The notes below the pieces were generated by a model that saw only the letters and a program-made list of their open reading frames with translations, was not told the origin of the DNA and did no database searches. From the NCBI GenBank assembly GCA_036500345.1, contig DASYCE010000031.1, positions 98,728-162,727 on the forward strand: DNA of 64,000 nucleotides, given 5' to 3'. The stretch comes from Gemmatimonadales bacterium. GTDB lineage: Bacteria > Gemmatimonadota > Gemmatimonadetes > Gemmatimonadales > GWC2-71-9. Made by a program: the position numbers and the translations under genes. This document shows, in pieces, positions 5,033 through 32,752 of the stretch. The number at the start of each line of letters is the position of its first letter. Positions within the stretch are counted from its first letter, which is position 1.

Positions 5033-5583
5033 CGTGTGTCTCCTGCGAGCGTTGCCCACTCGCGTTTGAGCGCCCTGAGCGCGCGGTGGACGCGGACCCG
5101 TGCCGCCCCCTCGCTGCACCCCAGGGCAAGCGCCAGATCGCGATGCGACAACCCCTCCATTCCGCGGAGGAGGAGGACTTCGCGATGGGCAAAAGGGAGC
5201 GCCGCGAGGGCGCGATCGAGCTGTTGCCGGTCTTCGCCGACGATCAGCGTATCAAGCGCCGACGGATTGTCGTCGGCCCAGTCATCAGGCTCCGGCGAGG
5301 TCGGCTTCTGGCGGCGGAAATGGGTCGCCGCCGTGTTGCGGGCGATCCGGAAGAGCCAGGCGAGGAAGTCCCGCGACGGGTCGAAGCGAGACCGGTACTT
5401 GAGGATCCGGAGGAAGACTTCCTGGACCAGGTCGTCGGCGGCATCCCGGTCGCCGGTGAGCCTGGCGAGGAACGAATGGACTCGGGGGTGATGCCGGACG
5501 AAGAGCGCCTCCAGGGCGATGGTCTTCCCGCCCTGCAGCTCCCGCATCAGATCGCGATCCGATTCCTCTACCAATGCCGTCAT
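5029..5583 (-). CDS. ECF-type RNA polymerase sigma factor (sigma-70 family, group 4)
   Basis: 184 aa. Region 2 DDLVQEVFLRILKYRSRFD...FLAWLFRIARNTA and region 4 REVLLLRGMEGLSHRDLALALGCSEGAARVRVHRALRAL. Confidence 0.9.
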   Translation of the reverse strand: MTALVEESDRDLMRELQGGKTIALEALFVRHHPRVHSFLARLTGDRDAADDLVQEVFLRILKYRSRFDPSRDFLAWLFRIARNTAATHFRRQKPTSPEPDDWADDNPSALDTLIVGEDRQQLDRALAALPFAHREVLLLRGMEGLSHRDLALALGCSEGAARVRVHRALRALKREWATLAGDTR

Positions 5584-13100: not shown

Positions 13101-13381
13101 TGCAGCGTGGTGTTGTCCTCGCCGTTGCGACTGACCGAGCGCATGCCGGTGAGGCCGGGAATCGCGCCGATCGCCTTCTCGATCGGTTCGGCAACGAAGC
13201 GCGACACCTCTTCGGCAGCGGCTCCCTTATATACGGTGCGCACCGCGAGCACCGGCAGCGTGACGTCGGGGAGGAGCGACACCGGCATCTGCGAAATCGA
13301 CACCGCGCCCAGGAGGACGAGGGTCATCGTGGCGGCGATGGTGGTGACGGGGCGGCGGAGCGCCGCGGAGCTCAGCGACAT
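10193..13381 (-). CDS. RND efflux transporter permease subunit (first of two tandem RND genes)
   Basis: 1062 aa. LRRPVTTIAATMTLVLLGAVSISQMPVSLLPDVTLPVLAVRTVYKGAAAEEV is the canonical AcrB-family N-terminus. Contains an unusual inserted hydrophilic loop (KKSDPVPRPSTGSGPVARDDKANAEDHADERW). Confidence 0.9.
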   Translation of the reverse strand: MSLSSAALRRPVTTIAATMTLVLLGAVSISQMPVSLLPDVTLPVLAVRTVYKGAAAEEVSRFVAEPIEKAIGAIPGLTGMRSVSRNGEDNTTLQFAWGTDMAKTVLAVREHLDNASTSFPTGVDRPTLLTSDPGERPIAVLALTGPGDLRAIARTGQDVHARRLEQIAGVASVAVVGDPTDEIRVDVDPDRARALGITPDDVATAISNANAIDNGGTVRRGQFRFSVRTLTELQDPAQIRDVPVGPAAQGIKLSDIATVTPASADPRTVVRLDGKAAIGLVVYKDAGSNTVAVTAELQKTLDLLAKQFPDVHVRIVAAQAKFVSAALSNLWQEIVVGGILSILIIVLFLRDVRMSLAIGVMVPLSVFVSLTLMQLFHVTINIFSLGGLALAVGMLVDNSIVVAEATERGRDLGEGTRESARVATDEVAAPLIAGTLTTALVFGPIVFVQGLSAALFRDLSISVVVTLMASLVLALTLMPVLTLWGRKKSDPVPRPSTGSGPVARDDKANAEDHADERWRPEMAHQPHMHALPANASFLDRVGFRLTRVYEVGLTWSLRYPGRVIAMAVVCVAFTVYLLVHLPREILPQVDEGSVTAELRLPPATAIEETIRQAGRLQAAAASLGSVGTYARIGSASDEEVLSGAEPGSPATAMFVFPVPHGTNAPAFADRLRRAVPDLAQGALAIDLAGQSEFGSLIGREGRTVRVEVSAQKDGDAERAAAQVRAAVATVPDLADVRDAFTGTEPIMEVSLLRDRIARRGLPISAVLNSLQGALGGVQASDLRETDRRTPIRVRYAGSANENLQTALASTVQGVPLGELVSVEETRAPVEVVRVDQRPVSVVEAVVERGGTARASDAVDKAVSKLTLAPGVEWQITGADQEQRKTTKQLSLVAVLSAALMFLVLAGEFSSFTSPLIIMTTVPIAGAGSVILLWLTGQSLNAVSLIGIVVMIGMADNEAVVKLDAIHRYRDLGYPIDEAVLRGGHKRLRAITMTTFTAIAGVIPLVLNLGSGGALYQPLGAAVLGGSVTQLAVTFFLMPALYAMIERSKARKTVAVASVAEPA

Positions 13382-13394
13382 GTGAGCGGGGCCG

Positions 13395-14531
13395 TCAGGG
13401 CGTGTCGCCGGTGCGCTTCTTGATGAGCTGGATCGGCGCCTGGTGCGTGAGCGTCAGCTGGCCGTCGGTGAGGACGATGTCGCCCGGTTTGAGCGGGATC
13501 TGGCCGCTGGCGCTGTCGGGAAGGATTTCGGTGTCGATACCGTTGCTGCGCCCGGCATTCACATAGACCCACTGCGCCTGGCCGTTCTGCGCCACGAAGA
13601 CGAGCGGCCGATTGTCGCGTTCGATCACGGCGCGCGCGGGGACGAGAATCCGGTTCGGCAACCGGTTCGCCTCGAGCTTGATGTCGGCGTACATCCCGGG
13701 GCGGAGCGTGCCGTCGCCGGCGATCCGGATGATCGCGCGCCCCGCACGGGTCACGGTGTCGACAAGCGGCAGCAGTGCTGCGATGGTGCCGCGCACCGGC
13801 TTGTCGGGAAATGCGGCGATGGTGACCCACGCTTCGCCGCCGACGCGAAGGAGCGGGAGATCGTGCTCGAGGACCTGCGCTTCGACACGGAGGTCTTTCA
13901 TGTCGACAACAGTGGCGATGTCGGCGCCGGCGGAGATGTGATCGCCGACTGCAACTGATACGTTTTCGATCACGCCGTCGAACGGCGCGGTGATCACGGC
14001 GTGCTGGCGTGCCAGCGTCGCCTTGTCGAGGGCGACCTGCGCGCCGTCGACGCCGGTCGATGCGCGGACGAAGGCGCGCCGCTCGGGACGGATCTGTCCC
14101 TCGACGGTGGAATCGGTGTAGACCTGCGTGTTGTAGTTCACGATGTCGGCGTTGAGCGACGCCTGCGCAGCGCGCACATCGAGGTCGAGCGGTGTCGGAT
14201 CGAGCTTGGCGAGGATCTCGTTGCGGGTGACATGGTCGCCGGCGCGGATCGGCACTGCCTGCACCGTTCCGGTCGCCTCGGCCTTCACATCGGTGCGGGC
14301 GTCGGTGCGGATCTGCCCGGTGGCGTTGACGGTGAGGACGAGGTCGCCCTTGCGCACCGGCTCGCCGACGACGGGAAGGGCGAGGGTGCTGCCGGCCTTG
14401 GAGGAATCGACGGCGGCGGTGATCGGATCGCCGGTGGTTGAATCGTTCGCCTTCGACTTGCACGACGTCAGGGTCGCGGCGGTGGCGAGCGTGGCGGCGA
14501 TGGCGGCGTGCGGGAATCGCGAACCGATCAT
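13395..14531 (-). CDS. RND membrane fusion protein (HlyD/AcrA family lipoprotein)
   Basis: 378 aa. Lipobox-like ATLTSC. Barrel-sandwich/hairpin motifs (GTVQAVPIRAGDHVTRNEILAKLD, ITAPFDGVIENVSVAVGDHI). First gene of the efflux operon. Confidence 0.85.
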   Translation of the reverse strand: MIGSRFPHAAIAATLATAATLTSCKSKANDSTTGDPITAAVDSSKAGSTLALPVVGEPVRKGDLVLTVNATGQIRTDARTDVKAEATGTVQAVPIRAGDHVTRNEILAKLDPTPLDLDVRAAQASLNADIVNYNTQVYTDSTVEGQIRPERRAFVRASTGVDGAQVALDKATLARQHAVITAPFDGVIENVSVAVGDHISAGADIATVVDMKDLRVEAQVLEHDLPLLRVGGEAWVTIAAFPDKPVRGTIAALLPLVDTVTRAGRAIIRIAGDGTLRPGMYADIKLEANRLPNRILVPARAVIERDNRPLVFVAQNGQAQWVYVNAGRSNGIDTEILPDSASGQIPLKPGDIVLTDGQLTLTHQAPIQLIKKRTGDTP

Positions 14532-14693
14532 GGGACCTCGAAACGGGCGCAGTGACGGCGCAGCGTGAAGCGCGGCGCACGCGCCGAGCTCTGGCGGCGT
14601 CGACGGTATTCGCTGGAATCGCTGGTATCTGATAGATCGGTCGGAACGGCGCGGGATGCAAGGGGGAGAGACGCGCCGATCCAGCGATCGGTA

Positions 14694-15743
14694 CTACATA
14701 CTGCAATAGAGGATCCCGTCGACCCATCCAGGCGGTGTTGCATCGCCGATTCCTGCCACGCATGCATATGATGAGCCCTTGGCGAGCGCCGTCCCCACCC
14801 AGCCTCGCCGGCTGGTGGCCAGCACGCGCACGTCCGCCACTGGCGATGCTGCGAGCCCGAGCGAATCATCCGTCGACACATAGTGTCCGGCGCGGTCCTT
14901 CACCCGCTCGGCGGCCATCAGCGCCCGGAAGAGTGCGGAACGAGTGGCTGCGGCAGTCGGCGCAACCGGCGGCACCGGAGACGCACATGCCTCATGGGGC
15001 GCAGGGCGTTGCAGTGGCCGTGCCAGCGAAAAAAACTCGATCCGGTCGAGCGAGTCACTCGCCGAGACACCGAGAATGCCGGTCTCCGTGACCCTGAGCG
15101 GAGTAAACCCGACCGGCAGTTCGCTCTGGGCAATCCGCCGGCCATCGGCGGATGCTATCGCAAATACATGCCCTGCCAGCGGTGCGGACCAGAACAATGA
15201 TCCATCCTGCAGCGCAACGCGAACGGTGGTATCCGGGTAATGCGAGGCGAGTTGCCGGACGCAGGCGATCGCAGGAGCGTCCTCGACGCGTGACATAGTG
15301 CGGTTGACAAAGATTAGCCGACGGGACTGACTCCACTGATCCCCCTTCTGCATTACTCCCATCGGCGCGCCGGTCTTGCCATACCATTGCGTAGAACTCG
15401 TCGCAGGATCGTGCGCGCCCACAGAATCGCCGCTGGCAACGAGCTCAATGGTGACCGACTTTGCCTGAGCGCCTCCATCGATCGCGGTGCGGCGCACCAA
15501 CGCTCCGCTCCGGCGATAGACCCGGACCTCTCGCGGCATCGAGTACGCGATGGCAACCAGATCATTCCCGAGAAGTGCAGCATCGCTCACGCCGCTCGCG
15601 CTCGGCACGCCCCCCTTGGCGGAGGCGATGATCGACCACTGCGGATGCGTGGCGACCTTCCAGCTGGGTTGCTGCGCATCAAGCGACCCGAGATGGGTCC
15701 CCATGAGCATTCCAGCTGATGCGACGAATCGAACTCTGTTCAT
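14694..15743 (-). CDS. Hypothetical secreted protein, last gene of Cys-peptide/propeller cassette 1
   Basis: 349 aa with signal-like MNRVRFVASAGMLMGTHLGSLDAQQ. Its start overlaps the stop of the upstream propeller gene by 4 nt (15740..15743). No confident domain call. The C-terminus has a Cys pair (YACVAG...ILYC). Confidence 0.55.
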   Translation of the reverse strand: MNRVRFVASAGMLMGTHLGSLDAQQPSWKVATHPQWSIIASAKGGVPSASGVSDAALLGNDLVAIAYSMPREVRVYRRSGALVRRTAIDGGAQAKSVTIELVASGDSVGAHDPATSSTQWYGKTGAPMGVMQKGDQWSQSRRLIFVNRTMSRVEDAPAIACVRQLASHYPDTTVRVALQDGSLFWSAPLAGHVFAIASADGRRIAQSELPVGFTPLRVTETGILGVSASDSLDRIEFFSLARPLQRPAPHEACASPVPPVAPTAAATRSALFRALMAAERVKDRAGHYVSTDDSLGLAASPVADVRVLATSRRGWVGTALAKGSSYACVAGIGDATPPGWVDGILYCSM

Positions 15744-16888
15744 CGGGCTGCCTCCCTCACGCCGTTGCCGTCACCACGAATGAAACCACCGGTAGGCACC
15801 CAGTCGCATCCGGTTGGGGATACCACATACGAGTAAACGACCGATCGGACGCGATTCTGGCTGTTGACTTGTCGCGCCAGGACGCTCACCGTGTCGCCCC
15901 GAAAGAACGGGATCGGCGTGACATCTGTTTCAACCGGAAGTTCTGCGTCGACACACGCGTGATTGCCGTCCGGCGCGAGGAGTGCCAAATACGTTCGAAA
16001 CGCGCCGTATCGGCCGCCATGCCCGGCGGTACCGAGCATTTCCATGTCGACGTAGGCGATGAGGTAATTCCCGTCCGCCTGCCGATTGAGACCAGCTGAC
16101 GCCGATGCCAGCACCTGATTCGCATCGGTGGGTCGAAGCTTCTGTTGCCGCGCAACAAGATCGTCTGGCTGGCCCCGCCGCCGGGCTGCCGGGATCGGAA
16201 CGCTTCCCAACCACGCCCCGGCCGAATCCACAAAGTCGAGGCCGATTTCACCCGGCAGCAGCATCGCGAAGCCGGCGTCGTGAGGTGCAAGTTCCGAGAC
16301 GCCATACCCCATGAGCACGCCTGAGGCTCCGCGAAATCTCGTCGGCATCCGACCGATTGCATGAACGGAGTCGTGGGTCCATACCCATCGCCCCGCAATC
16401 CCCTCGGTCATGTGGAGGGCGAAGTACACAGTGTCGCCTTCGACCTGCCAGTCCTGACCAATGTCCTGCGCAGGTAGCGCTACCATTCGGTCAAAGCCGC
16501 CGGTCGACGCATCGAACACCTCCATTGCGTGCCGATTGACATCGACCACCGCCAGCAGCGAGTCGTGGGCGACCAGATGCAGCGGTCCGGGAAGCTGGAA
16601 TTCCCCGGGCCCACTCCCCGGCTTGCCAACGACACCAGCGAAGGCGCCGTTGCCACGAAAGTGCAGGACTCTCCGCGATTGCATGTCATTGACGAAATAG
16701 TCGCCGCGACCCGAATGCGCGACAAAGGCCGTGTACGCACCAAGCGGCATGGAGTCAGGGTCCTGCAGGACAACCGAATCGACCAGAGTGACCGTTGCGC
16801 CACGGCTGGATTTCGGCACTCGACGAATATGCGAGTCACCGTGGCACCCCATCACGACCACCACGGCGACCACGGTACGAAGACGCAT
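15740..16888 (-). CDS. 6-bladed beta-propeller family lipoprotein (TolB-like/NHL-like propeller)
   Basis: ORF-track entry 15740..17059 trimmed to ATG at 16888 (MRLRTVVAVVVVMGCHGD, lipobox). Family hallmark VVGKPGSGPGEFQLPG is shared with the proteins at 22090..23223 and 47986..49200. Confidence 0.65.
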   Translation of the reverse strand: MRLRTVVAVVVVMGCHGDSHIRRVPKSSRGATVTLVDSVVLQDPDSMPLGAYTAFVAHSGRGDYFVNDMQSRRVLHFRGNGAFAGVVGKPGSGPGEFQLPGPLHLVAHDSLLAVVDVNRHAMEVFDASTGGFDRMVALPAQDIGQDWQVEGDTVYFALHMTEGIAGRWVWTHDSVHAIGRMPTRFRGASGVLMGYGVSELAPHDAGFAMLLPGEIGLDFVDSAGAWLGSVPIPAARRRGQPDDLVARQQKLRPTDANQVLASASAGLNRQADGNYLIAYVDMEMLGTAGHGGRYGAFRTYLALLAPDGNHACVDAELPVETDVTPIPFFRGDTVSVLARQVNSQNRVRSVVYSYVVSPTGCDWVPTGGFIRGDGNGVREAAR

Positions 16889-17001
16889 TGCGTGATCCAG
16901 GAGGAAGTTCCAGCGCTGGTGTCGGAGAAACCCGGGTGTCACAACATAGCAACCAACCGCCTGGCGCACACCTCGAGCGAGGTGTGCGCCAGGCCATCTA
17001 C

Positions 17002-17214
17002 TTACTGAAAGCAGTTGCACTTGCAGTCCGGATTGGTCTCGCATCCGGCGAGGTCCCAATCACAGACCCATACGCAGTCCTGAAATCCGAACACACCGAC
17101 CCAGTGAGTTTGCCGTGTGGTATCGGCGTGCGCCCGCGGCATGTGGCCCGCACCAAACACCAACATCGCTGCGACCGCCGCTGCGCCGAACCATCCGCTG
17201 CTCTTACGTGTCAT
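17002..17214 (-). CDS. Small secreted six-cysteine peptide (70-aa precursor)
   Basis: Trimmed to ATG at 17214, preceded on the minus strand by GGAGGACGCA-ATG (strong SD). MTRKSSGWFGAAAVAAMLVFGAGHMPRAHA is signal-like. The predicted mature part DTTRQTHWVGVFGFQDCVWVCDWDLAGCETNPDCKCNCFQ has 6 Cys in the last 25 residues. Confidence 0.55.
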   Translation of the reverse strand: MTRKSSGWFGAAAVAAMLVFGAGHMPRAHADTTRQTHWVGVFGFQDCVWVCDWDLAGCETNPDCKCNCFQ

Positions 17215-17704
17215 TGCGTCCTCCGGGAATGGGGTTGGATGAATCACCAACGGGGGGAAGGTGGAACAACTGGCGGAGAAACGGTCGCGCTTCCGAGACC
17301 GTGACCGGTTTCGCAAAATGTCCACGGACGAATGGCAGTACTGCAGGTGAATCACTATGGATGACCAATGAGCGTCCTGCGATCACTGCGTCCGGAACCT
17401 CATGCTGAAGCGCCAGTTGCCGGCGTTCATAGTCCGTTGGCGGCCTCGACAGCACGAAAGCGACCGCCCCGGGATGCCGACGGCGCGCTTGCAGCAGGGA
17501 GTAGAGCGGACGATCGCAGCTGAGGCAGTCAGCCGGATCGACGACGACGATCGCGAACGCATCCGTATCGGTAACCACGGCCTGGAGCACTCGCCCATCG
17601 ACCAGCCGCGTGCTTGCCACCGATCGCGACCGTCCGCAAGACCACGCAGCACACACCACGGCCGCCCCGAGTGCAATTTTCCGCAGCGCTGATTGTGATC
17701 GCAT
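17204..17704 (-). CDS. Thioredoxin-fold-like CxxC protein with signal peptide/possible lipobox
   Basis: 166 aa. MRSQSALRKIALGAAVVCAAWSCG is signal-like. AIVVVDPADCLSCDRPLYSLL has the beta1-CxxC-alpha1 arrangement of TlpA/redoxin-type proteins. 11-nt overlap with the Cys-peptide gene. The domain call is tentative. Confidence 0.5.
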   Translation of the reverse strand: MRSQSALRKIALGAAVVCAAWSCGRSRSVASTRLVDGRVLQAVVTDTDAFAIVVVDPADCLSCDRPLYSLLQARRRHPGAVAFVLSRPPTDYERRQLALQHEVPDAVIAGRSLVIHSDSPAVLPFVRGHFAKPVTVSEARPFLRQLFHLPPVGDSSNPIPGGRNDT

Positions 17705-17900
17705 GGTAGCAGATTCGGAAAGGATTGCAAATCATGCAATACTCCAACTTTGCAATGCCCCAGTTGGTCTCTTCCCTATGGCCGGGGCTGGCGCGGTCCA
17801 ATCGTCGGTCCCATACTAGATCGAGCCCATTTCAGCCCGGGTCATGGAGGAGCCGATGGTTGTCAACGGCCGGCGCGCTCAAATCGAGGGGAGTCCAATT

Positions 17901-18209
17901 ATGCGTAACTTGCGCACGGAGGAATTGCCACATCTGCCAATGTGGTTGACATGCGATGAACTCAACTATGTATGCGACCAGCTTAACTGCATGACTCATC
18001 AGCAACGTCGCATTTTCGCGCACTACGCGGCGTTTTACGTCGCAAAGGAAATTGCCGAAGCATTGGGCCTATCAAGCACCACGGTCCGACGGTATACGGC
18101 GGCGATGGTCAAACGGGCCCCGGGGTGCAGCGGAGTACGAGGCCTGATGCAAAACGCGCTTAGACTTCTGGTCGCCCGTAATCACGATGAATTCGACGCA
18201 ACTTGCTGA
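17901..18209 (+). CDS. Small HTH regulator (LuxR/GerE- or sigma-70 region-4-like)
   Basis: ORF 17844..18209. I prefer the ATG at 17901 because GAGGGGAG lies 8-15 nt upstream. HTH segment: THQQRRIFAHYAAFYVAKEIAEALGLSSTTVRRYTAAMVKR. Sits in a visibly lower-GC patch, divergent from cassette 1. Confidence 0.55.
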   Translation: MRNLRTEELPHLPMWLTCDELNYVCDQLNCMTHQQRRIFAHYAAFYVAKEIAEALGLSSTTVRRYTAAMVKRAPGCSGVRGLMQNALRLLVARNHDEFDATC

Positions 18210-18234
18210 AACAAGCAGACAACGGCTATCGCAG

Positions 18235-18777
18235 ATGCAGTTGAACCGACTCTCGCTGATTGCGTTCCGCGCCGCGACAATGGTAACGCTCGCCAACCCT
18301 GTCACCGCCGCCCAACACGCCACGCCGCCGCTCCAAGGCTTCTGGCATCGCACCTCGCTGCAATGCGCGCCCGGCGCCTCGGCCGCGTGCCACTCGCTGA
18401 AACTTCCACTCGACGCCGATCTCGCCATCGCAATCACCGGCGACACCGTCGTGACGACGCGCCCTGATCGCGATGCCGTCTTCGCGGCGACGGTGGCCGC
18501 CGATACCCTTGTCATCGATTCGCGACGAAGCCATTGGCTCGCCGGACATCGCGGCTACTCCGCTCCCACGATATCCGTTGGTCCTTTGGCCCACACTGAG
18601 CGCGACGATACCACGTACCATGTCTATCGTGGCTCAAATCGATCCGCGCCAGCATTTTCGCAATCGGGCGCGCAATGGACCGTTTCCGCCGATGGCCGGA
18701 CGTTGACCTGCCGGCAGGAATACTTCAATGACGGCGCCAGTGTCGTGGTGGTGCAGAGGTATCACCGGTCGGCGTGA
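18235..18777 (+). CDS. Hypothetical secreted protein
   Basis: ORF 18187..18777. The internal ATG at 18235 gives a clean signal peptide, MQLNRLSLIAFRAATMVTLANPVTAAQ. A start at 18187 is also possible. No recognisable domain. Confidence 0.5.
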   Translation: MQLNRLSLIAFRAATMVTLANPVTAAQHATPPLQGFWHRTSLQCAPGASAACHSLKLPLDADLAIAITGDTVVTTRPDRDAVFAATVAADTLVIDSRRSHWLAGHRGYSAPTISVGPLAHTERDDTTYHVYRGSNRSAPAFSQSGAQWTVSADGRTLTCRQEYFNDGASVVVVQRYHRSA

Positions 18778-18822
18778 CCGGAATCGATCTTTGCCTATGC
18801 TCATCCCCTCGCGCGCGATATA

Positions 18823-21800
18823 TTGCACCCCACTTCCCCACCCAATCCGGCAGGTTCGTTGACCGATCTCCGATCGCGCGTTCAAGAGTCGCTGGCGGGG
18901 AGCTATACCCTCGAGCACGAGCTCGGCGGCGGCGGGATGTCCCGCGTCTTCGTCGCCCAGGAAAACCGCCTCGAACGCCGGGTGGTGGTCAAGGTCCTCT
19001 CCCCCGAACTCGCCGCCGGGATGTCGCTGCCGCGGTTCGAGCGCGAGATCCGCGTCGCCGCCTCGCTGCAGCAGGCCAACATCGTCCAGGTCCTCGCCGC
19101 AGGCGACATCGACGGGCTGCCGTACTACACGATGCCCTACATCGAGGGCGAATCGCTTCGCGCCCGCCTCGGCCGCGGCGCGCTGTCGATCGCCGAGATC
19201 GTCAGCATCCTCCGCGACGTGTCGCGCGCGCTGGTCTACGCCCACGAGCGCGGCGTGGTCCATCGCGACATCAAGCCCGACAATGTCCTGCTCTCCGGGC
19301 ACACTGCGGTCGTCACCGATTTCGGCATTGCCAAGGCAATCAGCGCCGCCCAGACCGGCGGCGATCGCCCCGATGGCGGGGTTGCGCAGGCGACGCTCAC
19401 CCAGCTCGGCACCGCCATCGGCACCCCGGCGTACATGGCGCCGGAACAGGCCGCCGGCGATCCGTCGACCGACCATCGCGCCGATATCTACGCCTTCGGC
19501 TGCATGGCGTACGAGCTGATCGCGAGCCGGCCGCCGTTCCCGAACCTCCCGCCGCACAAGCTCGTCTTCGCGCACATGAGCGAAGCACCGCAGCCGGTCG
19601 GCGAACTCCGCGCCGATTGCCCGCCGGCGCTCGCCGCGCTGGTGATGCAGTGTCTCGCGAAGGATCCTATCCAGCGCCCGGCGAATGCCACCGAGCTGCT
19701 CCATCGCCTCGATGCGGTGGCATCGACATCCGGTACCGGCGGCGCCCTCCCGGCGATCCTGATCGGCGGGCCGAGGACGATCTGGCGCGCGCTGGGGATT
19801 TATGCCCTCGCGTTCGTCGCGGTCGCGATTCTCGCTCGTGCGGCGATCATCGCGATCGGTCTCCCCGACTGGGTCTTCACCGGCGCCCTCATCGTGATGG
19901 CGCTGGGACTCCCCGTGGTCCTCTTCACCGCGTACACCCAGGTCATCGCGCGCCGAGCAGCGACCGCGACGCCGACCTTCACCCCCGGCGGCACACAGGC
20001 CGCAGCACCGCAGGGAACGATGGCGACGCTCGCGATCAAGGCGAGCCCGCACCTCTCGTGGCAGCGCACCGCACGCGGCGGGATGATCGCCGTCGGTGTC
20101 TTCGTGCTGCTCGTCGCCGGCTTCATGACACTCCGCGCCCTCGGCATCGGCCCCGCAGGGTCGCTCCTCGCTGCCGGGAAGTTTGCTGCCAACGACAAGA
20201 TCGTCGTCGCCGCATTCGACTCGCCCGGCGCCGATTCGTCACTCGGATCGACGATCGCCGAAGCGGTTCGGACCACGCTCTCCGAGAGCCGCGCGCTGCA
20301 CGTCATACCGACCACGACGATCGTCTCGACACTCGAACAGATGAAGCGCCCCGACACCGCGCGTGTCGACTTCGCCACGGCGCGCGAGATCGCCCAGCGC
20401 AACGGTGCCAAGGCGGTCGTCGCCGGAACGATCGTCCCGGCTGGAAGCGGCTACGTCATCACGATACGGCTCGTCGCGGCCGAGAGCGGCAATGAGCTCG
20501 CGTCGTTCAGCGAATCGGCCAACAACACCGGCGACCTGATTCCCGCGGTCGATCGGGTGACCAAGTCGCTCCGTCGCAAGATCGGTGAATCGCTCAAGTC
20601 GGTGCGCGAGTCGCCACCGCTCCAGCAGGTGACGACGGCGTCGATTGGCGCCCTCCGCAGCTACGCCGCGGCGATGCGCACCAACGATGTGGTCGGCGAC
20701 TACCCGGCCGCGATCCGTCAATTCCACGACGCCATTCAGCAGGACAGCAACTTCGCGATGGCCTGGGTGCAGCTCGCCTATTCGCTGCAGACCCTTGGCG
20801 GCGCCGCCAACATCGCGGCAACCCACGCCGCTCTCACCACTGCCTTCCGACTGCGCGACCGGCTGCCTGAGCGGGAGCGGTACAACGTCGAGGGTGGCTA
20901 TTACCTCGACGTCCCGAATGATCGCGCCAAGGCGATCGTCGCCCTCCGTCGCGCAGTGGAGCTCGACTCCACCAACGACGACGCGGCGAATACCCTTGCC
21001 GTGACACTCGGTGAAACGCGTGACACCGGTGCCATCGCGGCGTACCGGCTCGCGTTGCGATCTGACTCGGCCGACGGCACGATCCTCTACAACCTCGCGA
21101 CGGAGTTCTCCCAGATCGGGCACCACTCGGGGGTCGATTCGATATTGGCGCTCCTTGCCAGCCGGCATGTGCCGTTTCCAACCGGCCCGATCCGATTCCC
21201 CGAATACTGGCAGCGGCGACAGTACGATTCGGCAGGGCTTGTCGCCCGTGCCGGCGTCGATTCCGCATCTCCGTTCCGCGTGGCGACGTCACTGGGCGGA
21301 CTGAGCCAGCTCGCGTCGGTGGAAGGGCGCCTGCACGACGCCGAGCGACTGTATGCTCAATCGAATGCCGGCAAGGCACGCGCGCGCGGCGATACCGTCA
21401 GTCCATACCAGGTGGCGTACGTCCAGGCGCTCTACGATGGAATTGACCGTCGAGACGTTCCGCGCGGTCTCGCCGACCTCGACTCCACGATGCGCGCAAC
21501 CCCTGTGGGTTCCACTCCGGTCGCCACTGACCAGAGCAATTGGGCGGCGCTGGCGTACGGCCTTCTGGGAAACGCCACCAGAGCGCGCGAGATACTCAAC
21601 CAGCATGAGGCTCGGCTCGATACACTGGCGCGCCGTCAGCAAACGGTGATGTCGGCGCGGGTACGTGGAACGATCGCGATGGCCGAGGGGAAGACCGACA
21701 GCGCCGTCAGCTGGTTCCGTCGCGGTGACGTCGAGGCCGATGGGTTGCCGACCGGCAAGTGCGAGGTCTGCACGCCGTACCTGATCGGCCTCGCGTTCGA

Positions 21801-22089: not shown

Positions 22090-23223
22090 CTACTGTCGCG
22101 CGAATCTCGCCCGATACAGATCGATGAACCAGTAGCCGCCCTGCGTCTCGCGCAGCTCATAGACGGTGCTGTCGTCGACGAACCCTCGGAGCGGACGGTC
22201 GATCCGCGCAGTCAGCAGCAGATCACCGGTGTGACTATCGAGCAACTGGATGATTCCGTCGTACGAACCGATGTGATAGAGATCGTCAGGACGCGTCGGC
22301 TTCGCATCGGCAGCGGTTTGATCCGCGCGCCAATCCGCTGCCGCCACATCGTACAATCCCCAGAGCACACCATCCTTCGTTTCGCGCACGCCGTGCATCT
22401 GCGGGAATGGCCGCTCGGCGCGGTCGCCTGCGTCGACCACTCGGTTGAATCGCGCGGTGTCGTACGGTGTGAACCAGTCGGGTGATCGGTCGATCGATCG
22501 TTCCAGCGTGCCGTCGACGTTCCAGAGTTCGAAATGCAGCTTGTAGTAGAGCGGTGCTGCCCAGAAGGTGTGCGCTTCATTCCCCGGGCCGAGGGCGTAA
22601 TAGCGGCCGTGGCCGTGCGGATCGCGTGGCGCCGAGGTTCCGATCCACCGGCGATCGCTGCCGTTCGAATCGATCACCACCAGCGGCTGTTCCTCGTAGA
22701 ACGCGTTCGCCACCACCACGCCATCATCGGGGAGAGTGACGCCGCGGTTGAGCAGCCACGGTTTCGCCGTGCGCGCGGTCGTCTCACGCATCGAGCTTCC
22801 ATCGAGCCATCCGAGCCGGTCGCCGGCCCCCAGGAGGAGGACGCGGTCGCCATGCCAGTGATAGGCACCCCGCACCAGCTGGTTTTCGCCGGGTCCCTGA
22901 CCGCGACGGCCAATCGCCCGGGCCGGCGCGCCGACCGAATCGAAGAGCGCCGCGACGCCGTCGACGACGGTCGGTGCCACGATGTATCGCCCATCATCGA
23001 GTCGCGTGAGAAAGGCTCGGCGATCGAGGAGGATCGAATCCGACGGCGAGCCGAGCGTGCCAATTCGCGTGAGTGCAAGGGTGCAGTCGACGCAGGTCAC
23101 TCCGCGCTCGATCACGGTGGCGCCGATCGCCGATTCGTACCCCGCGCTCGGCGCGGCCGCGTTGCGGCAGCCGGTAGCGAGGAGCGCGAGTGCGGCGGTG
23201 CGAGCCGCCGAAGCGTGCGTCAC
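22090..23223 (-). CDS. 6-bladed beta-propeller family lipoprotein
   Basis: ORF-track entry 22090..23310 trimmed to GTG at 23223 (VTHASAARTAALALLATGC, lipobox). This GTG shares 1 nt with the TAG stop of the upstream Cys-peptide gene. Motif IGRRGQGPGENQLV is paralogous to 15740..16888 and 47986..49200. Confidence 0.7.
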   Translation of the reverse strand: MTHASAARTAALALLATGCRNAAAPSAGYESAIGATVIERGVTCVDCTLALTRIGTLGSPSDSILLDRRAFLTRLDDGRYIVAPTVVDGVAALFDSVGAPARAIGRRGQGPGENQLVRGAYHWHGDRVLLLGAGDRLGWLDGSSMRETTARTAKPWLLNRGVTLPDDGVVVANAFYEEQPLVVIDSNGSDRRWIGTSAPRDPHGHGRYYALGPGNEAHTFWAAPLYYKLHFELWNVDGTLERSIDRSPDWFTPYDTARFNRVVDAGDRAERPFPQMHGVRETKDGVLWGLYDVAAADWRADQTAADAKPTRPDDLYHIGSYDGIIQLLDSHTGDLLLTARIDRPLRGFVDDSTVYELRETQGGYWFIDLYRARFARQ

Positions 23224-23468
23224 TAGTTGGGGCAAGCCTGGTGGATTTCGCACCCCGCCTGCGCCGGAGATCCGTGGCAGCCGAGGTTGTCGCCGATGCA
23301 GGTGCGGCACTCGGAGCCGGTGGGAGTGCTGCTGAAGTAATGGACGATATCCTCTTCGTCGATGCAGTGCCCGTAGGTCCCAGTCTCTTCGGCCTTGACT
23401 CGCGCCGACCGGATCATCGCAGCGCCAGCCAGTACAGTGATTGCTGCCAGAATCTGCCTTGTTCGCAT
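23223..23468 (-). CDS. Small secreted six-cysteine peptide (81-aa precursor)
   Basis: ATG at 23468 is preceded on the minus strand by CAGGAGGATATCTCG-ATG (strong SD). MRTRQILAAITVLAGAAMIRSARVKA is signal-like. The mature part contains 6 Cys (GHC...SECRTC...LGC...AGC...QAC). Confidence 0.6.
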   Translation of the reverse strand: MRTRQILAAITVLAGAAMIRSARVKAEETGTYGHCIDEEDIVHYFSSTPTGSECRTCIGDNLGCHGSPAQAGCEIHQACPN

Positions 23469-23732
23469 CGAGATATCCTCCTGTCGTGGTTTGCCATGGA
23501 GCGGGGTCTCAGAGAGGTATCGGGCGCGCCGCCCCAGTACGAGACACCATAAGGGACGTGCAGTATCAGGAGGGGTGGCACAAGGGGGGGGCGCAGTCGC
23601 GCCCTCTGTGCCAGGGGGGCCGGCGGCCCCTCAGGTTGAAAGTCGCGCAACTGTTACCGGGTAAATGCCCGACACCGCGGTCCGGGACGGTATACTCTGC
23701 GGCTCGAAGTGAACGGCCGACCGGGGGGACGG

Positions 23733-23960
23733 ATGCCGGACGACGACTCGCTCGACGGCTTGGAACCGGGGTTCGATCCTGCCGACCACTGGTGGGCGTG
23801 GCGACGTATCACACTGTGGTCAGATGAACGACTCGAAGCGAAGATCGTGTCATTGCGCGCGGCGTCCCTGCAGACCACGGATCAGACTTCGCTGCTCGCC
23901 TTTCTGGAAGATGCGTGGCGCTCCCGCCAGCAGCCGCGGCACCCGCGATACGTGCGCTAG
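23733..23960 (+). CDS. Small conserved-motif protein (WSD...DQ...FLE family, paralog of 29344..29568)
   Basis: ORF 23709..23960. ATG at 23733 is preferred (G-rich SD-like GGGGGGACGG upstream). ITLWSDERLEAKIVSLRAASLQTTDQTSLLAFLEDAWRSRQQPR aligns without gaps to the 29344..29568 product. Confidence 0.5.
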   Translation: MPDDDSLDGLEPGFDPADHWWAWRRITLWSDERLEAKIVSLRAASLQTTDQTSLLAFLEDAWRSRQQPRHPRYVR

Positions 23961-23977
23961 ATCTGCTGTTCGTTATC

Positions 23978-24550
23978 TCAAATAATATCCGTGGCGGCAG
24001 GAGTCCCGAGTCGTGCGGGTTCGTGTCGGTCTCCCGCCGAACCGATCTTTGCGATGCCAGCGCCGGAGAGTGCGCCCCAGAAGGCGAACCGAGGGATTGT
24101 CGCAATTGCAAGTGCAATCCATACGGTCGCTACTGGCGAGATCACGCTCGCTGTGATTCCCGCGAGGCATGCGCCGGCCAGCGCGCCTGCGATCATGCCA
24201 TACGCTGCCCCGCGCAACGTCGTCAGCTGCGACTCGGGGCGGCGGCGCTCAGCAAATGACACGAATGCGCTGAACAAGAGTCCCACGGTGAATCCGACGA
24301 TTGCGGTAGCGATGGTGAACAGGAGGAAGACGACTCCCCACCAGGGACTGTGGTGTGGCCATCTGACGGAAACGATTCCGATCCATCCGGCGGCATGCAG
24401 GACGACTTCCCCTAGCACCCAGGAGATTCCCCAGATTGAGGCGACGCGCCAGCCGGCGATGATCCGTCGTGCAAGCCCGGGTGTACCGAGCCGCGCGGGC
24501 GGTGGCGGCGAATCCGAACGCGCCAATCTCACTGCGCGACCCCGACCCAA
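23978..24550 (-). CDS. Hypothetical integral membrane protein (about 4 TM helices)
   Basis: 190 aa with hydrophobic segments (WGVVFLLFTIATAIVGFTVGLLFSAFV, AAYGMIAGALAGACLAGITASVI, VWIALAIATIPRFAFWGAL). Overlaps the upstream gene end by 22 nt. No family recognised. Confidence 0.45.
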   Translation of the reverse strand: MGRGRAVRLARSDSPPPPARLGTPGLARRIIAGWRVASIWGISWVLGEVVLHAAGWIGIVSVRWPHHSPWWGVVFLLFTIATAIVGFTVGLLFSAFVSFAERRRPESQLTTLRGAAYGMIAGALAGACLAGITASVISPVATVWIALAIATIPRFAFWGALSGAGIAKIGSAGDRHEPARLGTPAATDII

Positions 24551-25464
24551 TCAGTGAGCGGAACTTCCCGTGTTCCGAGAGTCCCCTTCGACCGGCCGAG
24601 CAATTCATTGAGCGACACGCGATTGGCAGCGAAGCCGGATAGGTCGTCGGCCTTTACGCGGAGGGTGAACGCGCGCTCGCCGGTGCGGGCGCAGAAGCTG
24701 CCGGAGCCATTCAGCATTTCATCACTCTTCAGTGTCACGTCGATGCGAAAGCCGAATTGCGGAGTGCCGTGCTGTACGGTGTTGCCGATCGAGCGGAGGA
24801 GTGGCGCGATCCCCTCGCGCACCAGCGTTCCAACCCTCGTTGGAAGTGCATCGGTGCATGCGTAGGTCGGCTCGCCGGTCCGGAGGGCGAGATAGCGGAC
24901 GCCATCGAGCGTGTCGACGCGAATGGTGTCGCCGGGGGTGTATCTCCGGAGGACGCGGCGAAGTTCGTGGCGCGCCAGTGTATCGCCCGCGGCGGCGGCG
25001 GCGCCGAGGAGCCGATCGATGGCGAGGTCTTCAGCGGCGGCCTGGACCTGCGCACTATCAGCGGAAGTGGCAAATACCTGATGCACGAGCCACGCGGAAT
25101 CGCGCGCGGCGAGGTCGAGCCGCATGGTGCCGCCGCCGTCAAGAATGATGCTGATCCGCGCCGGCGCGACGCGCCGAACGGAAGTCACGCGCCACGGATG
25201 CGGGAAGGTCAACCCGATTCCAGGCCATCCGGCGGAGCCGTTGACCAGAAGATCGTTGCCGCGGCGGTCGAGGGCGGCCGTGTAGAGCGGGAAGCCGGTT
25301 GAATCGCGCTCGGCGTGGAAGGTAGCCATCGGCAGGCGGACGGCGACCGCAATGTGCGGTGCGGCGCGGAGAGGCTGCTGGGCGTGGAGGAGGAGGGGCA
25401 GGATCAGGATTGCGGTGAGCATCAATCCAATTGCGGTTGGCGTTATGTCTAATTTGTTCTTCAT
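24529..25464 (-). CDS. Hypothetical secreted protein
   Basis: ORF-track entry 24529..25653 trimmed to ATG at 25464 (MKNKLDITPTAIGLMLTAILILPLLLHAQQ, signal peptide). 311 aa, no recognisable domain. Confidence 0.55.
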   Translation of the reverse strand: MKNKLDITPTAIGLMLTAILILPLLLHAQQPLRAAPHIAVAVRLPMATFHAERDSTGFPLYTAALDRRGNDLLVNGSAGWPGIGLTFPHPWRVTSVRRVAPARISIILDGGGTMRLDLAARDSAWLVHQVFATSADSAQVQAAAEDLAIDRLLGAAAAAGDTLARHELRRVLRRYTPGDTIRVDTLDGVRYLALRTGEPTYACTDALPTRVGTLVREGIAPLLRSIGNTVQHGTPQFGFRIDVTLKSDEMLNGSGSFCARTGERAFTLRVKADDLSGFAANRVSLNELLGRSKGTLGTREVPLTDWVGVAQ

Positions 25465-25662
25465 CGATGGGCCCACTTTCGCGGAAGCCGAACGCAACAG
25501 CATCAAGCCAATTACCCGTATTGTCTTGCGAGGTGGCCGTGGCGGACTCGAGTCGGATCTTGCAGAAATCAGTCGCGGTCGTCCGAGCCACGCGGCCGCC
25601 GCTCGCAGCCCCGTCCGCCCGCGACACTGACGACTCGCGATCCTAGGACACAAAGCGGGGCA

Positions 25663-26364
25663 TCATCCGATTGACCACCACCAGCTCGACTGGTAAATCG
25701 TCATGGCGCGTTCCTGCCAAGTGGCTTTCTGCCACATCGCTTGGCGTGGCGAGCCACCGTTTTTTGCGGACTCCTCTAGGCGATTGTAAACATCCTCAGT
25801 AATAATTGACGCATAACTCCCATCGCGCAGGCCGCACAGCTTGGCTGCATAATTCGCCGCCCGACCAACCCACACTAAGTCGTTAGTGCCGCGAATGCCG
25901 GTGCGGGCCACGAACAACTTGCTTGTGTCAATGCCGACTACGTGCTGGACCTTGTACGTTGTGCTGGTGTAGCGCTTTTGAATCTCCGTATTCAGGATAT
26001 TCTTTACGGCCCAGTTGAGCTTGAGGGCGGTCTTCGCGGCCTGTGAATTCTTTGACTCTCCGATGTACACAGCCATCACACGATCGCCGTCAAACGAAGT
26101 AATATCACCGCCGTTGTCACGGATGATCCGACATGCCAGCCTCAGGTAGCTCTTGTAGACCTCAGCAGCAAACCAATCCTTGTAGCCGTTAACAAGATCC
26201 GTCGAGTCAACAAGATCCGCATAGAGCACGGTCGCGTCCAGCTCGACCCCATCGTTATCTAGTTTCACCGACTCCGTCGTGGGAATCGTGGCACCCTTGC
26301 GACGCTTCCACTCCGACGAAAGAATCGCGATCACTTCTGCCCGCAGCTCAGCCGCATTGGCCAT
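25663..26364 (-). CDS. Stand-alone class III nucleotidyl cyclase (Pycsar PycC-like candidate)
   Basis: 233 aa. Cyclase core motifs: ATVLYADLVDSTDL (metal Asp), GDITSFDGDRVMAVY (second Asp), VARTGIRGTNDLVWVGRAANYAAKLC. No sensor or TM domain. 8 nt downstream of a cNMP-binding effector gene. Lower GC than the flanks. Confidence 0.85.
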   Translation of the reverse strand: MANAAELRAEVIAILSSEWKRRKGATIPTTESVKLDNDGVELDATVLYADLVDSTDLVNGYKDWFAAEVYKSYLRLACRIIRDNGGDITSFDGDRVMAVYIGESKNSQAAKTALKLNWAVKNILNTEIQKRYTSTTYKVQHVVGIDTSKLFVARTGIRGTNDLVWVGRAANYAAKLCGLRDGSYASIITEDVYNRLEESAKNGGSPRQAMWQKATWQERAMTIYQSSWWWSIG

Positions 26365-28005: not shown

Positions 28006-28218
28006 ATGCCAGCGAAGCCGCCCTCATACTTGATCGACGCCTTCACCGGTTTACTGCTCTATCTCGCGATCACGACCGGCTTCGACGAAATCGCCGGCGA
28101 CCCGATTCGCTGGGGCCGGAGCATCGCCATTGCAACCTTGTGGGCGCTGATCTTTACGGCGCTGCAGATGCGCCGTCGCGACCGCGCCGAACCCCAGGAA
28201 CCCCATGGCACCAAATAG
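28006..28218 (+). CDS. Small hypothetical membrane protein (2 TM)
   Basis: 70 aa. High third-position GC consistent with host coding. Hydrophobic segments AFTGLLLYLAITTGF and SIAIATLWALIFTAL. No SD seen. Confidence 0.4.
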   Translation: MPAKPPSYLIDAFTGLLLYLAITTGFDEIAGDPIRWGRSIAIATLWALIFTALQMRRRDRAEPQEPHGTK

Positions 28219-28234
28219 CCAGTACCTTTCCCGC

Positions 28235-28411
28235 ATGCCCAAACCGACCCGGCAGCAAATCCGCCAACTCTCGATATTCTATGTCGTGGTCCTCATCGGC
28301 GCGGCCCGCTGGCGACCGCAGACCCTTCCGGGGACCGTTTTCGCCCTGATCGTAGTATTCGTTATCGTCCCGTGCCTGGTTTTGAACCGGGTTTCCGCCG
28401 CCGGGCACTGA
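28235..28411 (+). CDS. Small hypothetical membrane protein (2 TM)
   Basis: ORF 28205..28411; ATG at 28235 (MPKPTRQQIRQLSIFYVVVLIGAA...VFALIVVFVIVPCLVL) or at 28205. Weak evidence beyond hydrophobicity and codon bias. Confidence 0.3.
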   Translation: MPKPTRQQIRQLSIFYVVVLIGAARWRPQTLPGTVFALIVVFVIVPCLVLNRVSAAGH

Positions 28412-28496
28412 TCTCCATCGGCAATCCGGACCATCTCGCATCTAGTCCGACCGCTCCCAGCGCATGCCCGCACCGATCCGCGCCTTGTCCTCCCCC

Positions 28497-29121
28497 TCCC
28501 CGACCATGTCCACGACATCCCGGCCTCGTCCCGCGGCGTCCCGGCCCAGTCCACCTGACTCCCGCCCTCGCACTTCTACTTCACGACCATGTCCACCGTG
28601 ATCCAGCGTTGTCCAACACAAACCCGGCCTCGCACTTCTACTTCGCCGCCATGTCCATCGACGCCCGGCCCATGTCCACCCTCGCCCGGCGCATTCCGTC
28701 GGTGACCCGACCTCGGCCCACTTAATTCACGCCCAAGTCCACCATCGCCCACCCTCGTCCATCAACAGCCCGCCCTCGCCCCGATTGACCCGGCCGATGT
28801 CCAGTGTCTCCCGGCCGATGTCCACAGTCGCCCGGCCAATTCCCGCGGCGACCCGGCCCCGGTCCACTGACTTCCCGGCCATGTCCACCGTCGACGCTCC
28901 TTGTCCATCGGATTCCCGGCTTCGGCCAACTACTCCCGGCGATGTTCCAGTGAATCCCGGCCTCGTCCCACTGACTCCCAGCCCCGTCCCACTGACTCCC
29001 GGACCTGTCCATGTGACTCCCGGCCTCGTCCAATAATTCCCGGCTCTTTCCAACTGACTTCCGCCCTTGTCCAACGAACTCCCCGTATTGTCCAGGTGAC
29101 TCCCGGCCTTGTCCCACTGAC
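28497..29121. repeat. Degenerate tandem array with 21-bp period, about 30 units, consensus near TCCCGGCCNNGTCCACNNNGA(C)
   Basis: Phased by hand into 30 consecutive units starting at 28497, 28518, 28539 ... 29101. 25 units are 21 nt and 5 are 20 nt, giving 625 nt. Conserved CCCGG and GTCCA cores at fixed phase. Examples: 28955 tcccggcctcgtcccactgac, 28976 tcccagccccgtcccactgac, 29101 tcccggccttgtcccactgac. No single ORF spans it. Confidence 0.85.
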
Positions 29122-29343
29122 TCACGCGTTTGCCCGCGTGAATACCGACTATCGCAACTTCGGCAACTCCCCTCACACGCCGAGCTGCGACGTTCACACG
29201 TCGCTACGATACCATCCAGATCTCACCATGGGGTTTTCATCAATCGACGAGCGATGACCGCCAAGCATCCACCCAGCCCACGCAGCAGCGTCTCAGGGGG
29301 TGAGCCCGCTACCCGCGGCGAGGGCAAATCATTCGCCCCCTTT

Positions 29344-29568
29344 TCACTCTATCGGTGGTGAGCCGCGCCGCTTCGCCCGCTCGGCGCGCGCCTCTTCGAG
29401 GAAGTGCAGGACCGCATCCTGGTCCGGCGTACGTTGCGACAGATTCCGCATCGCATCAAGCAGTATATCCAGCTCCGCATCGGACCACGCTGCCAGCGAG
29501 TGACTGTTGCCTTGCCGCCGATGCGCTGAACCTCCCGTGTAATCCCCTGCTCCAGATTCGGGCGTCAT
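29344..29568 (-). CDS. Small conserved-motif protein (WSD...DQ...FLE family, paralog of 23733..23960)
   Basis: 74 aa. ATG at 29568 is preceded on the minus strand by GGAGGCGTT-ATG (strong SD). LAAWSDAELDILLDAMRNLSQRTPDQDAVLHFLEEARAERAKRR aligns gap-free with the 23733..23960 product. Confidence 0.6.
   Translation of the reverse strand: MTPESGAGDYTGGSAHRRQGNSHSLAAWSDAELDILLDAMRNLSQRTPDQDAVLHFLEEARAERAKRRGSPPIE

Positions 29569-29694: not shown

Positions 29695-32752
<3,058 letters not shown>

Follow-up and report, generated by a model that had tools for sequence, protein, structure and literature searches.

A tandem array between divIC and tRNA-Met

The window analysed here is a 64,000-nt stretch of the genome of a Gemmatimonadales bacterium (contig DASYCE010000031.1, positions 98,728 to 162,727), and our subject is a tandem array of short direct repeats at window positions 28497-29131. 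The array is chromosomal and single-copy, and it occupies the interval between divIC and tRNA-Met of an uncultured, soil-type host, which its enolase homologues assign to uncultured Gemmatimonadales. Read along the minus strand, the order is eno, divIC, an orphan 74-aa open reading frame (ORF74), the array, two small open reading frames (ORFs) on the opposite strand, tRNA-Met and a low-GC Pycsar islet. Two diverged copies of the array were recovered, at loci L006 and L098, and both align with the window unit by unit. The array is real, non-coding and constrained in its cores, changes by whole units and lies in a lineage-specific insert; the constraint on the cores is the new result. The features of the locus are as follows.

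29994-31274, minus strand: eno (enolase)
29695-29997, minus strand: divIC/ftsB, 100 aa, the upstream boundary of the insert
29344-29568, minus strand: ORF74, an orphan ORF of 74 aa whose Shine-Dalgarno sequence is GGAGG, in the same lineage-specific insert and conserved in L006 and L098
29320-29340, minus strand: hairpin directly after the ORF74 stop, GGGGGCGAA-TGA-TTTGCCCTC, without a U-tract, read from the L006 alignment
29132-29210, minus strand: conserved block adjoining the array, from the L006 alignment (BLAST, 83% identity over 58 nt)
28497-29131, no strand assigned: tandem array, a partial unit followed by 30 direct units of 20-22 nt; orthologues at L006 12140-12780 and L098 ~625-1259
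28205-28411, plus strand: 68-aa ORF for a second small hydrophobic protein, judged by eye, in a 256-bp stretch that L006 is without
28006-28218, plus strand: 70-aa ORF, apparently membrane-spanning (hydrophobic stretches judged by eye), between array and tRNA and conserved in L006
27797-27872, minus strand: tRNA-Met (CAT), the ancestral immediate neighbour of divIC across Gemmatimonadales, with the array-bearing insert on its 5′ side

On the plus strand the repeat unit reads GTCCA-N6/7-CCCGGCC-N2/3. The base-match autocorrelation of positions 28476-29140 peaks at lags of 21 (0.547), 42 (0.498) and 63 (0.470), while across 500 shuffles the top value over lags 1-70 averaged 0.347 and never exceeded 0.384. 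The roughly 30 tandem units with 21-bp periodicity described in the initial annotation, which was made from the letters alone, thus pass a significance check. Tandem Repeats Finder also recovers the array, in several pieces with periods of 21 and 62, because the units are only 65-75% alike. Phasing anchored on GTCC resolves 30 units over 28508-29131, preceded by a partial unit at 28497-28507, with all units direct and oriented the same way. Twenty are 21 nt long, eight are 20 nt and two are 22 nt (mean 20.8 bp); the earlier total of 30 therefore stands, and its tally of 25 units of 21 nt and five of 20 nt is corrected in this detail only. Four separately assembled contigs of the same population (two from JGI metagenomes, two from Logan runs) are 100% identical over 2 kb including the array, with a constant copy number, which excludes assembly error and makes the off-length units real.

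Information content is concentrated at GTCC (columns 1-4, 1.2-2.0 bits, followed by a weaker A), at CCCG (columns 13-16, 1.1-1.4 bits) and at column 18 (1.2 bits). The remaining columns mostly hold 0.7 bits or less, leaving near-random positions around two cores, and the profile bears out the earlier description of CCCGG and GTCCA cores at fixed phase. Core starts alternate at about 12 and 9 bp, which places a TCC/GGA triplet on roughly every helical turn. Distances between successive GGA/TCC triplets are mostly 10 or 11 nt, and the autocorrelation at lag 10 (0.363, compared with 0.304 ± 0.017 in shuffles) indicates a 10-11 bp sub-period. A 1-nt shift of the internal spacing with the 21-nt period kept had also been proposed; the sub-spacing correlations of -0.38 (n=9) and -0.22 (n=13), from the few clean units, point weakly that way. 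The plus strand is 45% C and 20% G (GC skew -0.32 to -0.41), leaving the minus strand G-rich. With up to one mismatch, eight of the nine CCCGGCCNNGTCCA matches in the window fall inside the array, where 0.84 would be expected by chance. The array is not a clustered regularly interspaced short palindromic repeat (CRISPR) locus, whose 21-48 bp repeats are separated by unique spacers of about equal size, as its period is 21 bp and its units abut without spacers.

Core constraint in a non-coding, lineage-specific array

The enolase of L006 is 99% identical to that of the window in amino-acid sequence, with 19% divergence at third codon positions (82/426). Inside the array the two loci differ in length only by 42, 21 and 20 bp, i.e. 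by whole units. In L098, a 1259-nt mosaic contig, the unit count is the same as in the window and a single 1-nt deletion lies in a G run. When the window, L098 and L006 are compared, the nine high-information columns show 0.119 substitution events per site and the other columns 0.286, so that core columns change 2.4 times more slowly (Fisher p = 1.4e-6); for the GTCC columns alone the figure across the three arrays is 7/108. In the pairwise comparison of the window with L006, divergence is 21% in the variable columns, close to the neutral level given by enolase third positions (19%), and 11.7% in the cores. Since the core columns had been defined from the window's paralogous units, without the ortholog comparison, the paralogue and orthologue evidence is independent.

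The L098 contig has a mosaic structure of its own. Its divIC end and spacer are identical to L006, the stretch from ORF74 to about window position 29010 is identical to the window and the rest carries its own variants, a pattern that points to strains having recombined recently inside this 1.3-kb stretch.

As had been observed at the outset, no reading frame runs through the whole array, and staggered ORFs of 45-156 aa lie on both strands. The longest, of 156 aa on the minus strand (28727-29197), extends over two thirds of the array. In its frame, substitutions between the window and L006 are spread over the codon positions as 23/24/26, compared with 6/3/82 for enolase in the same genome pair, and 43 codons differ non-synonymously versus 14 synonymously. 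No frame on either strand of the array has a codon-type substitution pattern, substitution events by unit column modulo 3 number 42/30/47, and 3-nt periodicity was not found in the array. Ten off-length units and four in-frame stops (TAG/TAA) interrupt the heptad frame a of the minus strand. The 1-nt deletion in L098 shortens the 156-aa ORF to 88 aa, the same-frame ORF of similar span in L006 has 146 aa, and gene calls over the array in L001 and L006 comprise only 38-53-aa fragments. Pfam gave no match for any array ORF. A phmmer search with the 156-aa ORF, a query that itself changes repeat frame, against 1.84 billion representative proteins returned five marginal matches (best E 2.9e-5), all to unrelated simple repeats. 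L006 (~19% neutral divergence) has its 20- and 22-nt units at matching positions, so the loss of frame goes back at least to the common ancestor, and the cores stayed constrained after that. Coding is excluded for the present array; an ancient coding origin is possible and is weighed below.

In most Gemmatimonadales loci examined, tRNA-Met lies a few hundred bp or less from divIC. Short intervals of this kind are found in L007 (96% enolase identity, spacer 36 nt), L010, L011, L016-L020, L022, L023, L028 and L096, with L018 not countable for this distance because it ends before the tRNA surroundings; L008, L009, L024 and L093 have extra DNA at this position. Given the short interval in most relatives, the 1.5-1.8 kb with ORF74, the array and the small ORFs is a lineage-specific insert. 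The 3′ side of tRNA-Met holds Pycsar in the window and a type IIG restriction-modification gene set in L006. Because L006 has the same array with a different islet, the array is not part of the 3′-side islet, and its placement in the initial annotation "beside the tRNA-linked islet" has to be revised: it belongs to the 5′ side of tRNA-Met, in a segment common to strains whose 3′ islets differ.

Candidate functions of the array

We tentatively favour, at somewhat less than even confidence, a helically phased array of bipartite candidate protein-binding sites on DNA. The array would then be a non-coding minisatellite kept by selection on two cores per unit, GTCC and the CCC within CCCGGCC. Because the cores lie about 12 and 9 bp apart, there would be one core per helical turn, all on one face of the DNA. 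Copies of a sequence-specific DNA-binding protein could line up side by side on some 30 bipartite sites (about 60 half-sites), each 21-bp unit offering contacts in two consecutive major grooves, and the constraint would act on double-stranded DNA through this protein. Bipartite direct-repeat operators and iterons work by such side-by-side binding. The 20-22 bp phasing over 630 bp, the two cores with near-random spacers, and length changes between relatives that keep the phase (42, 21 and 20 bp) argue for this reading. Of the non-coding, DNA-level array that had been proposed earlier, the non-coding and constrained character is confirmed, while its protein-binding, iteron or centromere aspect is conjectural, with no rep, par or DNA-binding gene among the neighbours. 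Intrinsically curved DNA was considered and set aside: the predicted curvature is ordinary, with a wedge-model end-to-end/contour ratio of 0.897 that ranks 38 among 101 genomic windows, figures that are indicative only.

Several known systems resemble the array in part. Plasmid and chromid iterons are likewise head-to-tail direct repeats of ~20-22 bp on the same helix face, with a core and looser flanks, and those of the R6K gamma origin are reportedly contiguous and 22 bp long. The array differs from them in having 30 units rather than the usual 3-10, in its chromosomal location without a plasmid match, and in lacking an adjoining rep gene, DnaA boxes and an AT-rich unwinding element. Repeat-type partition centromeres, such as R1 parC with 11-bp iterons, pSK41 parC with 20-bp repeats and F sopC with 12 repeats of 43 bp, share the long phased tandem repeats that let a small protein coat DNA co-operatively, and the adjoining small ORF. 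Unlike these centromeres, the array has no ParA, ParM or TubZ gene in its neighbourhood and no sign of a separate replicon, and ORF74 has no ribbon-helix-helix or other DNA-binding match. In operators of AraC/XylS proteins with two helix-turn-helix motifs, a box A, a spacer of 6 or 7 nt and a box B recur 21 bp centre to centre. The array unit similarly pairs two distinct short boxes, separated by about one turn of the helix, in a direct 21-bp repeat; here, however, there are 30 units instead of two to four next to a promoter, with no such regulator gene nearby and no promoter evident.

A number of observations weigh against protein binding to the DNA. Outside the array, the bipartite motif has seven matches in the 64-kb window compared with 9.2 expected window-wide, which is not above chance, and no regulon of dispersed single sites is therefore visible in the window. 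No rep, par, AraC-type or other DNA-binding gene that could supply the binding protein was found within 10 kb on the conserved side. ORF74 has no homologues among 5.8 billion proteins, and its AlphaFold2 model is a two-helix hairpin without a significant PDB match (best Foldseek E-value 1.7). To our knowledge, known operators and iterons stay far below thirty sites. The C-richness of the plus strand is a strand asymmetry that would suit an RNA role equally well, and gene conversion among units could in principle mimic the conservation of the cores. The array is also confined so far to one narrow lineage. The search of relatives that had been suggested yielded the two diverged copies, and the array is absent from relatives at enolase identity of 96% or less. 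A survey of 80 loci centred on enolase in other genomes (~1.3 Mb) recovered neither the unit nor a comparable array; among these loci the nearest species representative is 81% identical in enolase. A DivIC query of genome contigs found no relative, and an exact 20-base pattern, which fits both known arrays twice each, found no further copies in JGI metagenome contigs. Plasmids (72,556 records), phages and viral contigs contain no match to the unit, so a mobile-element origin is unsupported.

An RNA-level function is possible, though we think it unlikely. A G-rich minus-strand transcript, in the sense of eno, divIC and tRNA-Met, could serve as a protein sponge or form G-quadruplexes, or a C-rich plus-strand transcript could contain a rut tract; in the latter version, a long Rho-loading tract would stop antisense transcription into divIC-eno. 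The GC skew of the array suits either form, and the bases under the strongest constraint are GGAC and GGG when read on the minus strand. That strand has 43 GGA triplets, mostly 10-11 nt apart (shuffle mean 25, maximum 38), together with 41 GGG runs and three of the six canonical G-quadruplex motifs of the window. In this abundance of closely and regularly spaced GGA motifs on a single strand, the array resembles the multi-site sponge RNAs of the CsrB/RsmZ type. The array differs from those RNAs in offering no hairpin display: folding is no better than in shuffles (z = -1.2 and -0.7 for the two strands), Rfam gives no match, the Csr/Rsm families included, and consensus scans show neither promoter nor terminator. 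No csrA was seen in the window or in any Gemmatimonadota locus examined, a very small sample. Against the plus-strand version, the small ORFs that would feed the transcript are not both conserved. ToxI-like repeats of type III toxin-antitoxin systems, which measure ~34-48 nt and lie directly upstream of an endoribonuclease toxin gene, were also rejected, as the array has 30 copies of a 21-nt unit, neither strand has a toxin gene downstream of it and PADLOC reports nothing for the neighbours.

Improbable to a similar degree, in our estimate, is a functionless minisatellite, in which a 21-bp unit expanded by slippage and the cores were reset to consensus by unequal exchange or gene conversion. 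The array has the hallmarks of bacterial intergenic minisatellites, or variable-number tandem repeats: its repeats are non-coding and head-to-tail, and copy number shifts from one relative to another in steps of whole units. Higher-order periods of 42, 62-63 and 83-84 bp fit this origin, as do the confinement to one lineage and the lack of an evident partner gene, and the mixture of window-like and L006-like stretches in L098 means that recombination does occur here. Young, homogeneous repeats of this class are nevertheless unlike the array, whose units are only ~65-75% alike, show position-specific conservation, persist unit by unit between orthologues and keep a constant copy number in four assemblies. 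Orthologous units retain their own spacers, which diverge about neutrally (0.286 events per site; 21%, compared with 19% at enolase third positions), and frequent conversion would inflate this spacer divergence. Among paralogous units, the cores hold 1.2-2 bits and the spacers are nearly random. Random spacers beside kept cores imply either long-term selection or conversion limited to 4-5 nt, which is probably unlike the behaviour of conversion tracts. The neutral account is thus weakened, because spacers evolve at and not above the neutral rate and because the paralogous spacers are near random with the cores kept.

It is quite improbable that the array is the remnant of a minus-strand gene for a heptad-repeat protein (xAGSx[W/L/M]D) whose frame was lost long ago. 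The 21-nt unit equals seven codons, the frame-a consensus has G or C at six of seven third positions, and certain changes in the cores (GAC to GAA) would be conservative there. A different array in L008 and L009, with 3-nt periodicity and long open frames, suggests that heptad-coding arrays occur near this locus. The heptads noted previously (xAGSx[WLMV]D) are indeed present in frame a, and there they are interrupted by length changes and TAG/TAA codons. The 10 off-length units, common to L006, the four in-frame stops and the persistence of constraint after the frame broke all speak against such a remnant, as does the lack of 3-nt periodicity, of codon-position bias and of any related protein among the 1.84 billion representatives. 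An uninterrupted heptad ORF was looked for in the relatives' loci, with a negative result. As a description of the present-day array, the frameshift-decayed heptad gene put forward in the initial annotation is accordingly unsupported.

A replication-related array, whether as the iterons of an integrated replicon or as clustered DnaA boxes (oriC or a datA-like titration site), is very improbable. The high-GC DnaA box, which we take to be TTGTCCACA, has a core similar to GTCCA, and several units read (A/T)TGTCCAC. Direct repeats two helical turns apart are typical of iterons, and the 20-22 bp units (mean 20.8) fall within the ~17-22 bp in helical phase by which these are recognised; the cumulative GC skew of the window also has its minimum near 30-34 kb. 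Yet GTCCA is followed by a random base (A8, C9, G6, T7) and then mostly by C, which leaves the units without the CACA half of a DnaA box. The second core, CCCGGCC, is left unexplained, and all units have the same orientation. No dnaA, dnaN or rep is found among called genes within 10 kb, and there is no AT-rich unwinding region around the array, where GC is 0.6 or higher. The skew minimum is shallow and arises largely from the array's own C-richness, while gene orientation switches only near 40-44 kb. The absence of the array from close relatives would be impossible for oriC. An oriC or DnaA-box cluster was rejected on the missing CACA half and on a skew minimum that reflects array composition.

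That the 156-aa ORF is a live gene for a Gly/Trp-rich repeat protein is barely credible: same-frame ORFs of similar span are open in the window and in L006 (156 and 146 aa), but in L098 the frame is cut to 88 aa, substitutions do not favour any codon position (23/24/26), non-synonymous codon changes outnumber synonymous ones (43 to 14), homologues are lacking and the ORF is uncalled beyond the 38-53-aa fragments.

Beyond a phased set of protein-binding sites on DNA, we regard as rather doubtful the further proposal that the array represents a novel type of chromosomal organiser or titration locus, in which the ~30 sites, or a G-rich transcript with ~43 GGA, would sequester or polymerise one protein beside divIC and the tRNA gene. 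Synthetic operator arrays would have a natural counterpart in such a locus, with both unit and partner undescribed so far. Bacterial chromosomes seldom contain long non-coding arrays under position-specific selection, and those that are understood (iterons, centromeres, titration sites and sponge RNAs) control copy number, segregation or regulator availability. The present array adds evolutionary evidence that the cores matter although the array encodes no protein. A partner protein, if discovered, would make a new DNA- or RNA-protein recognition pair in Gemmatimonadota, a poorly studied phylum with almost no molecular genetics; if none exists, the array would be a clean example of bacterial minisatellite persistence. 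The reach of either outcome is limited, since the array comes from a single narrow lineage of uncultured bacteria.

Neighbouring features and unrelated arrays

Between ORF74 and the array, the spacer (29126-29343) is only 68.5% identical to L006 overall, and the block at 29132-29210 is better conserved. This block includes an inverted repeat, GCGACG-TTCACA-CGTCGC, at 29187-29204, and a consensus scan found no promoter in it. At the hairpin after ORF74 (29320-29340), the changes in L006 preserve pairing; the terminator scan did not list it. The 70-aa ORF between array and tRNA has substitutions of 12/7/19 by codon position between the window and L006.

ORF74 has an in-frame 3-bp indel in L006 and a flat distribution of substitutions over codon positions (4/5/5). 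Its centre (29375-29500), about 125 nt, is nearly invariant relative to L006, with three differences where about eight synonymous changes would be expected, while changes in the N-terminal part are mostly non-synonymous. This pattern suggests that the centre may be under constraint other than, or beyond, that on the protein. ORF74 has no match in Pfam, NCBIfam or PADLOC. A role as a ribbon-helix-helix binder of the array, raised by its sequence pattern, was dropped because the model is a helical hairpin only and Foldseek and hidden Markov model searches came back empty. The phmmer likeness to haloperoxidases of the alpha/beta-hydrolase type (E = 0.7-1.1) is at chance level.

On the other side of tRNA-Met, the low-GC islet at the tRNA 3′ end (GC 0.50-0.59) carries a complete Pycsar anti-phage pair (25663-27338, minus strand). 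It consists of the PycC cyclase (25663-26364, PADLOC E = 7e-97) and the PycTIR effector (26373-27242/27338), which has a cyclic-nucleotide (cNMP)-binding and a TIR domain. Four ORFs past this pair (22090-25503) have no Pfam or PADLOC match. The tRNA-Met gene is an integration hot spot: the L006 islet at 13137-21000 encodes HTH_17, an Eco57I-type N6-methyltransferase and a faint Rep_1 match, and L007 has a duplicated tRNA 3′-end fragment at 5532-5565 (within 5339-5565), about 120 nt after the tRNA, that resembles an att scar.

Several other arrays came up in the searches. In sister lineages with 88-90% enolase identity, a second array of 21-bp period lies downstream of divIC (L009 6450-7060, L008 12990-13520). 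Its unit is approximately CTCTTCGGNCGGATCGGCTCC with an 84-bp higher order, and the L008 and L009 copies belong to the same family (position weight matrix r = 0.90). As a homologue of the window's array it was rejected, because the matrix correlation of 0.23 lies below the shuffled-column mean of 0.32; the two are unrelated. The L009 copy has 3-nt periodicity and frames open for ~500 bp. Judged by these sequence features, the L008/L009 array is probably coding, and in L009 it may represent an acidic or proline-rich heptad protein that is not cleanly annotated.

The pattern-scan match in L013 is an unrelated, low-GC 21-bp array. At 113-427 it has 15 near-perfect units of GGGAGTCATTCGGACGTCAGT, with the palindrome CTGACGTCAG and two similar 10.5-bp halves, and is predicted to be strongly curved; a second repeat of ~42 bp follows at 430-580, upstream of a membrane-protein gene. 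A protein match, P0005 from L005, proved to be a spurious ORF over another unrelated 21-bp array. That array (L005 2904-3139) is non-coding, with 11 copies of CGTCCTGGTCTTTCCGGGACG and an internal imperfect inverted repeat, and the source annotation treats it as part of a 311-aa 'protein', P0005. The sole match among viral contigs, L095 from IMG/VR, is an unrelated 10-bp iteron-like array, in which repeat clusters CGGCCACGCA and GCCGTGGTCC at 2059-2466 and 3428-3566 have opposite orientations and an iteron- or centromere-like look. In another Gemmatimonadales genome, a heptanucleotide microsatellite, (CTCCCTA/CTCCCTG)n, lies just after tRNA-Met (L021 11850-11910), and similar 7-nt arrays occur in L023, L028, L039 and L089.

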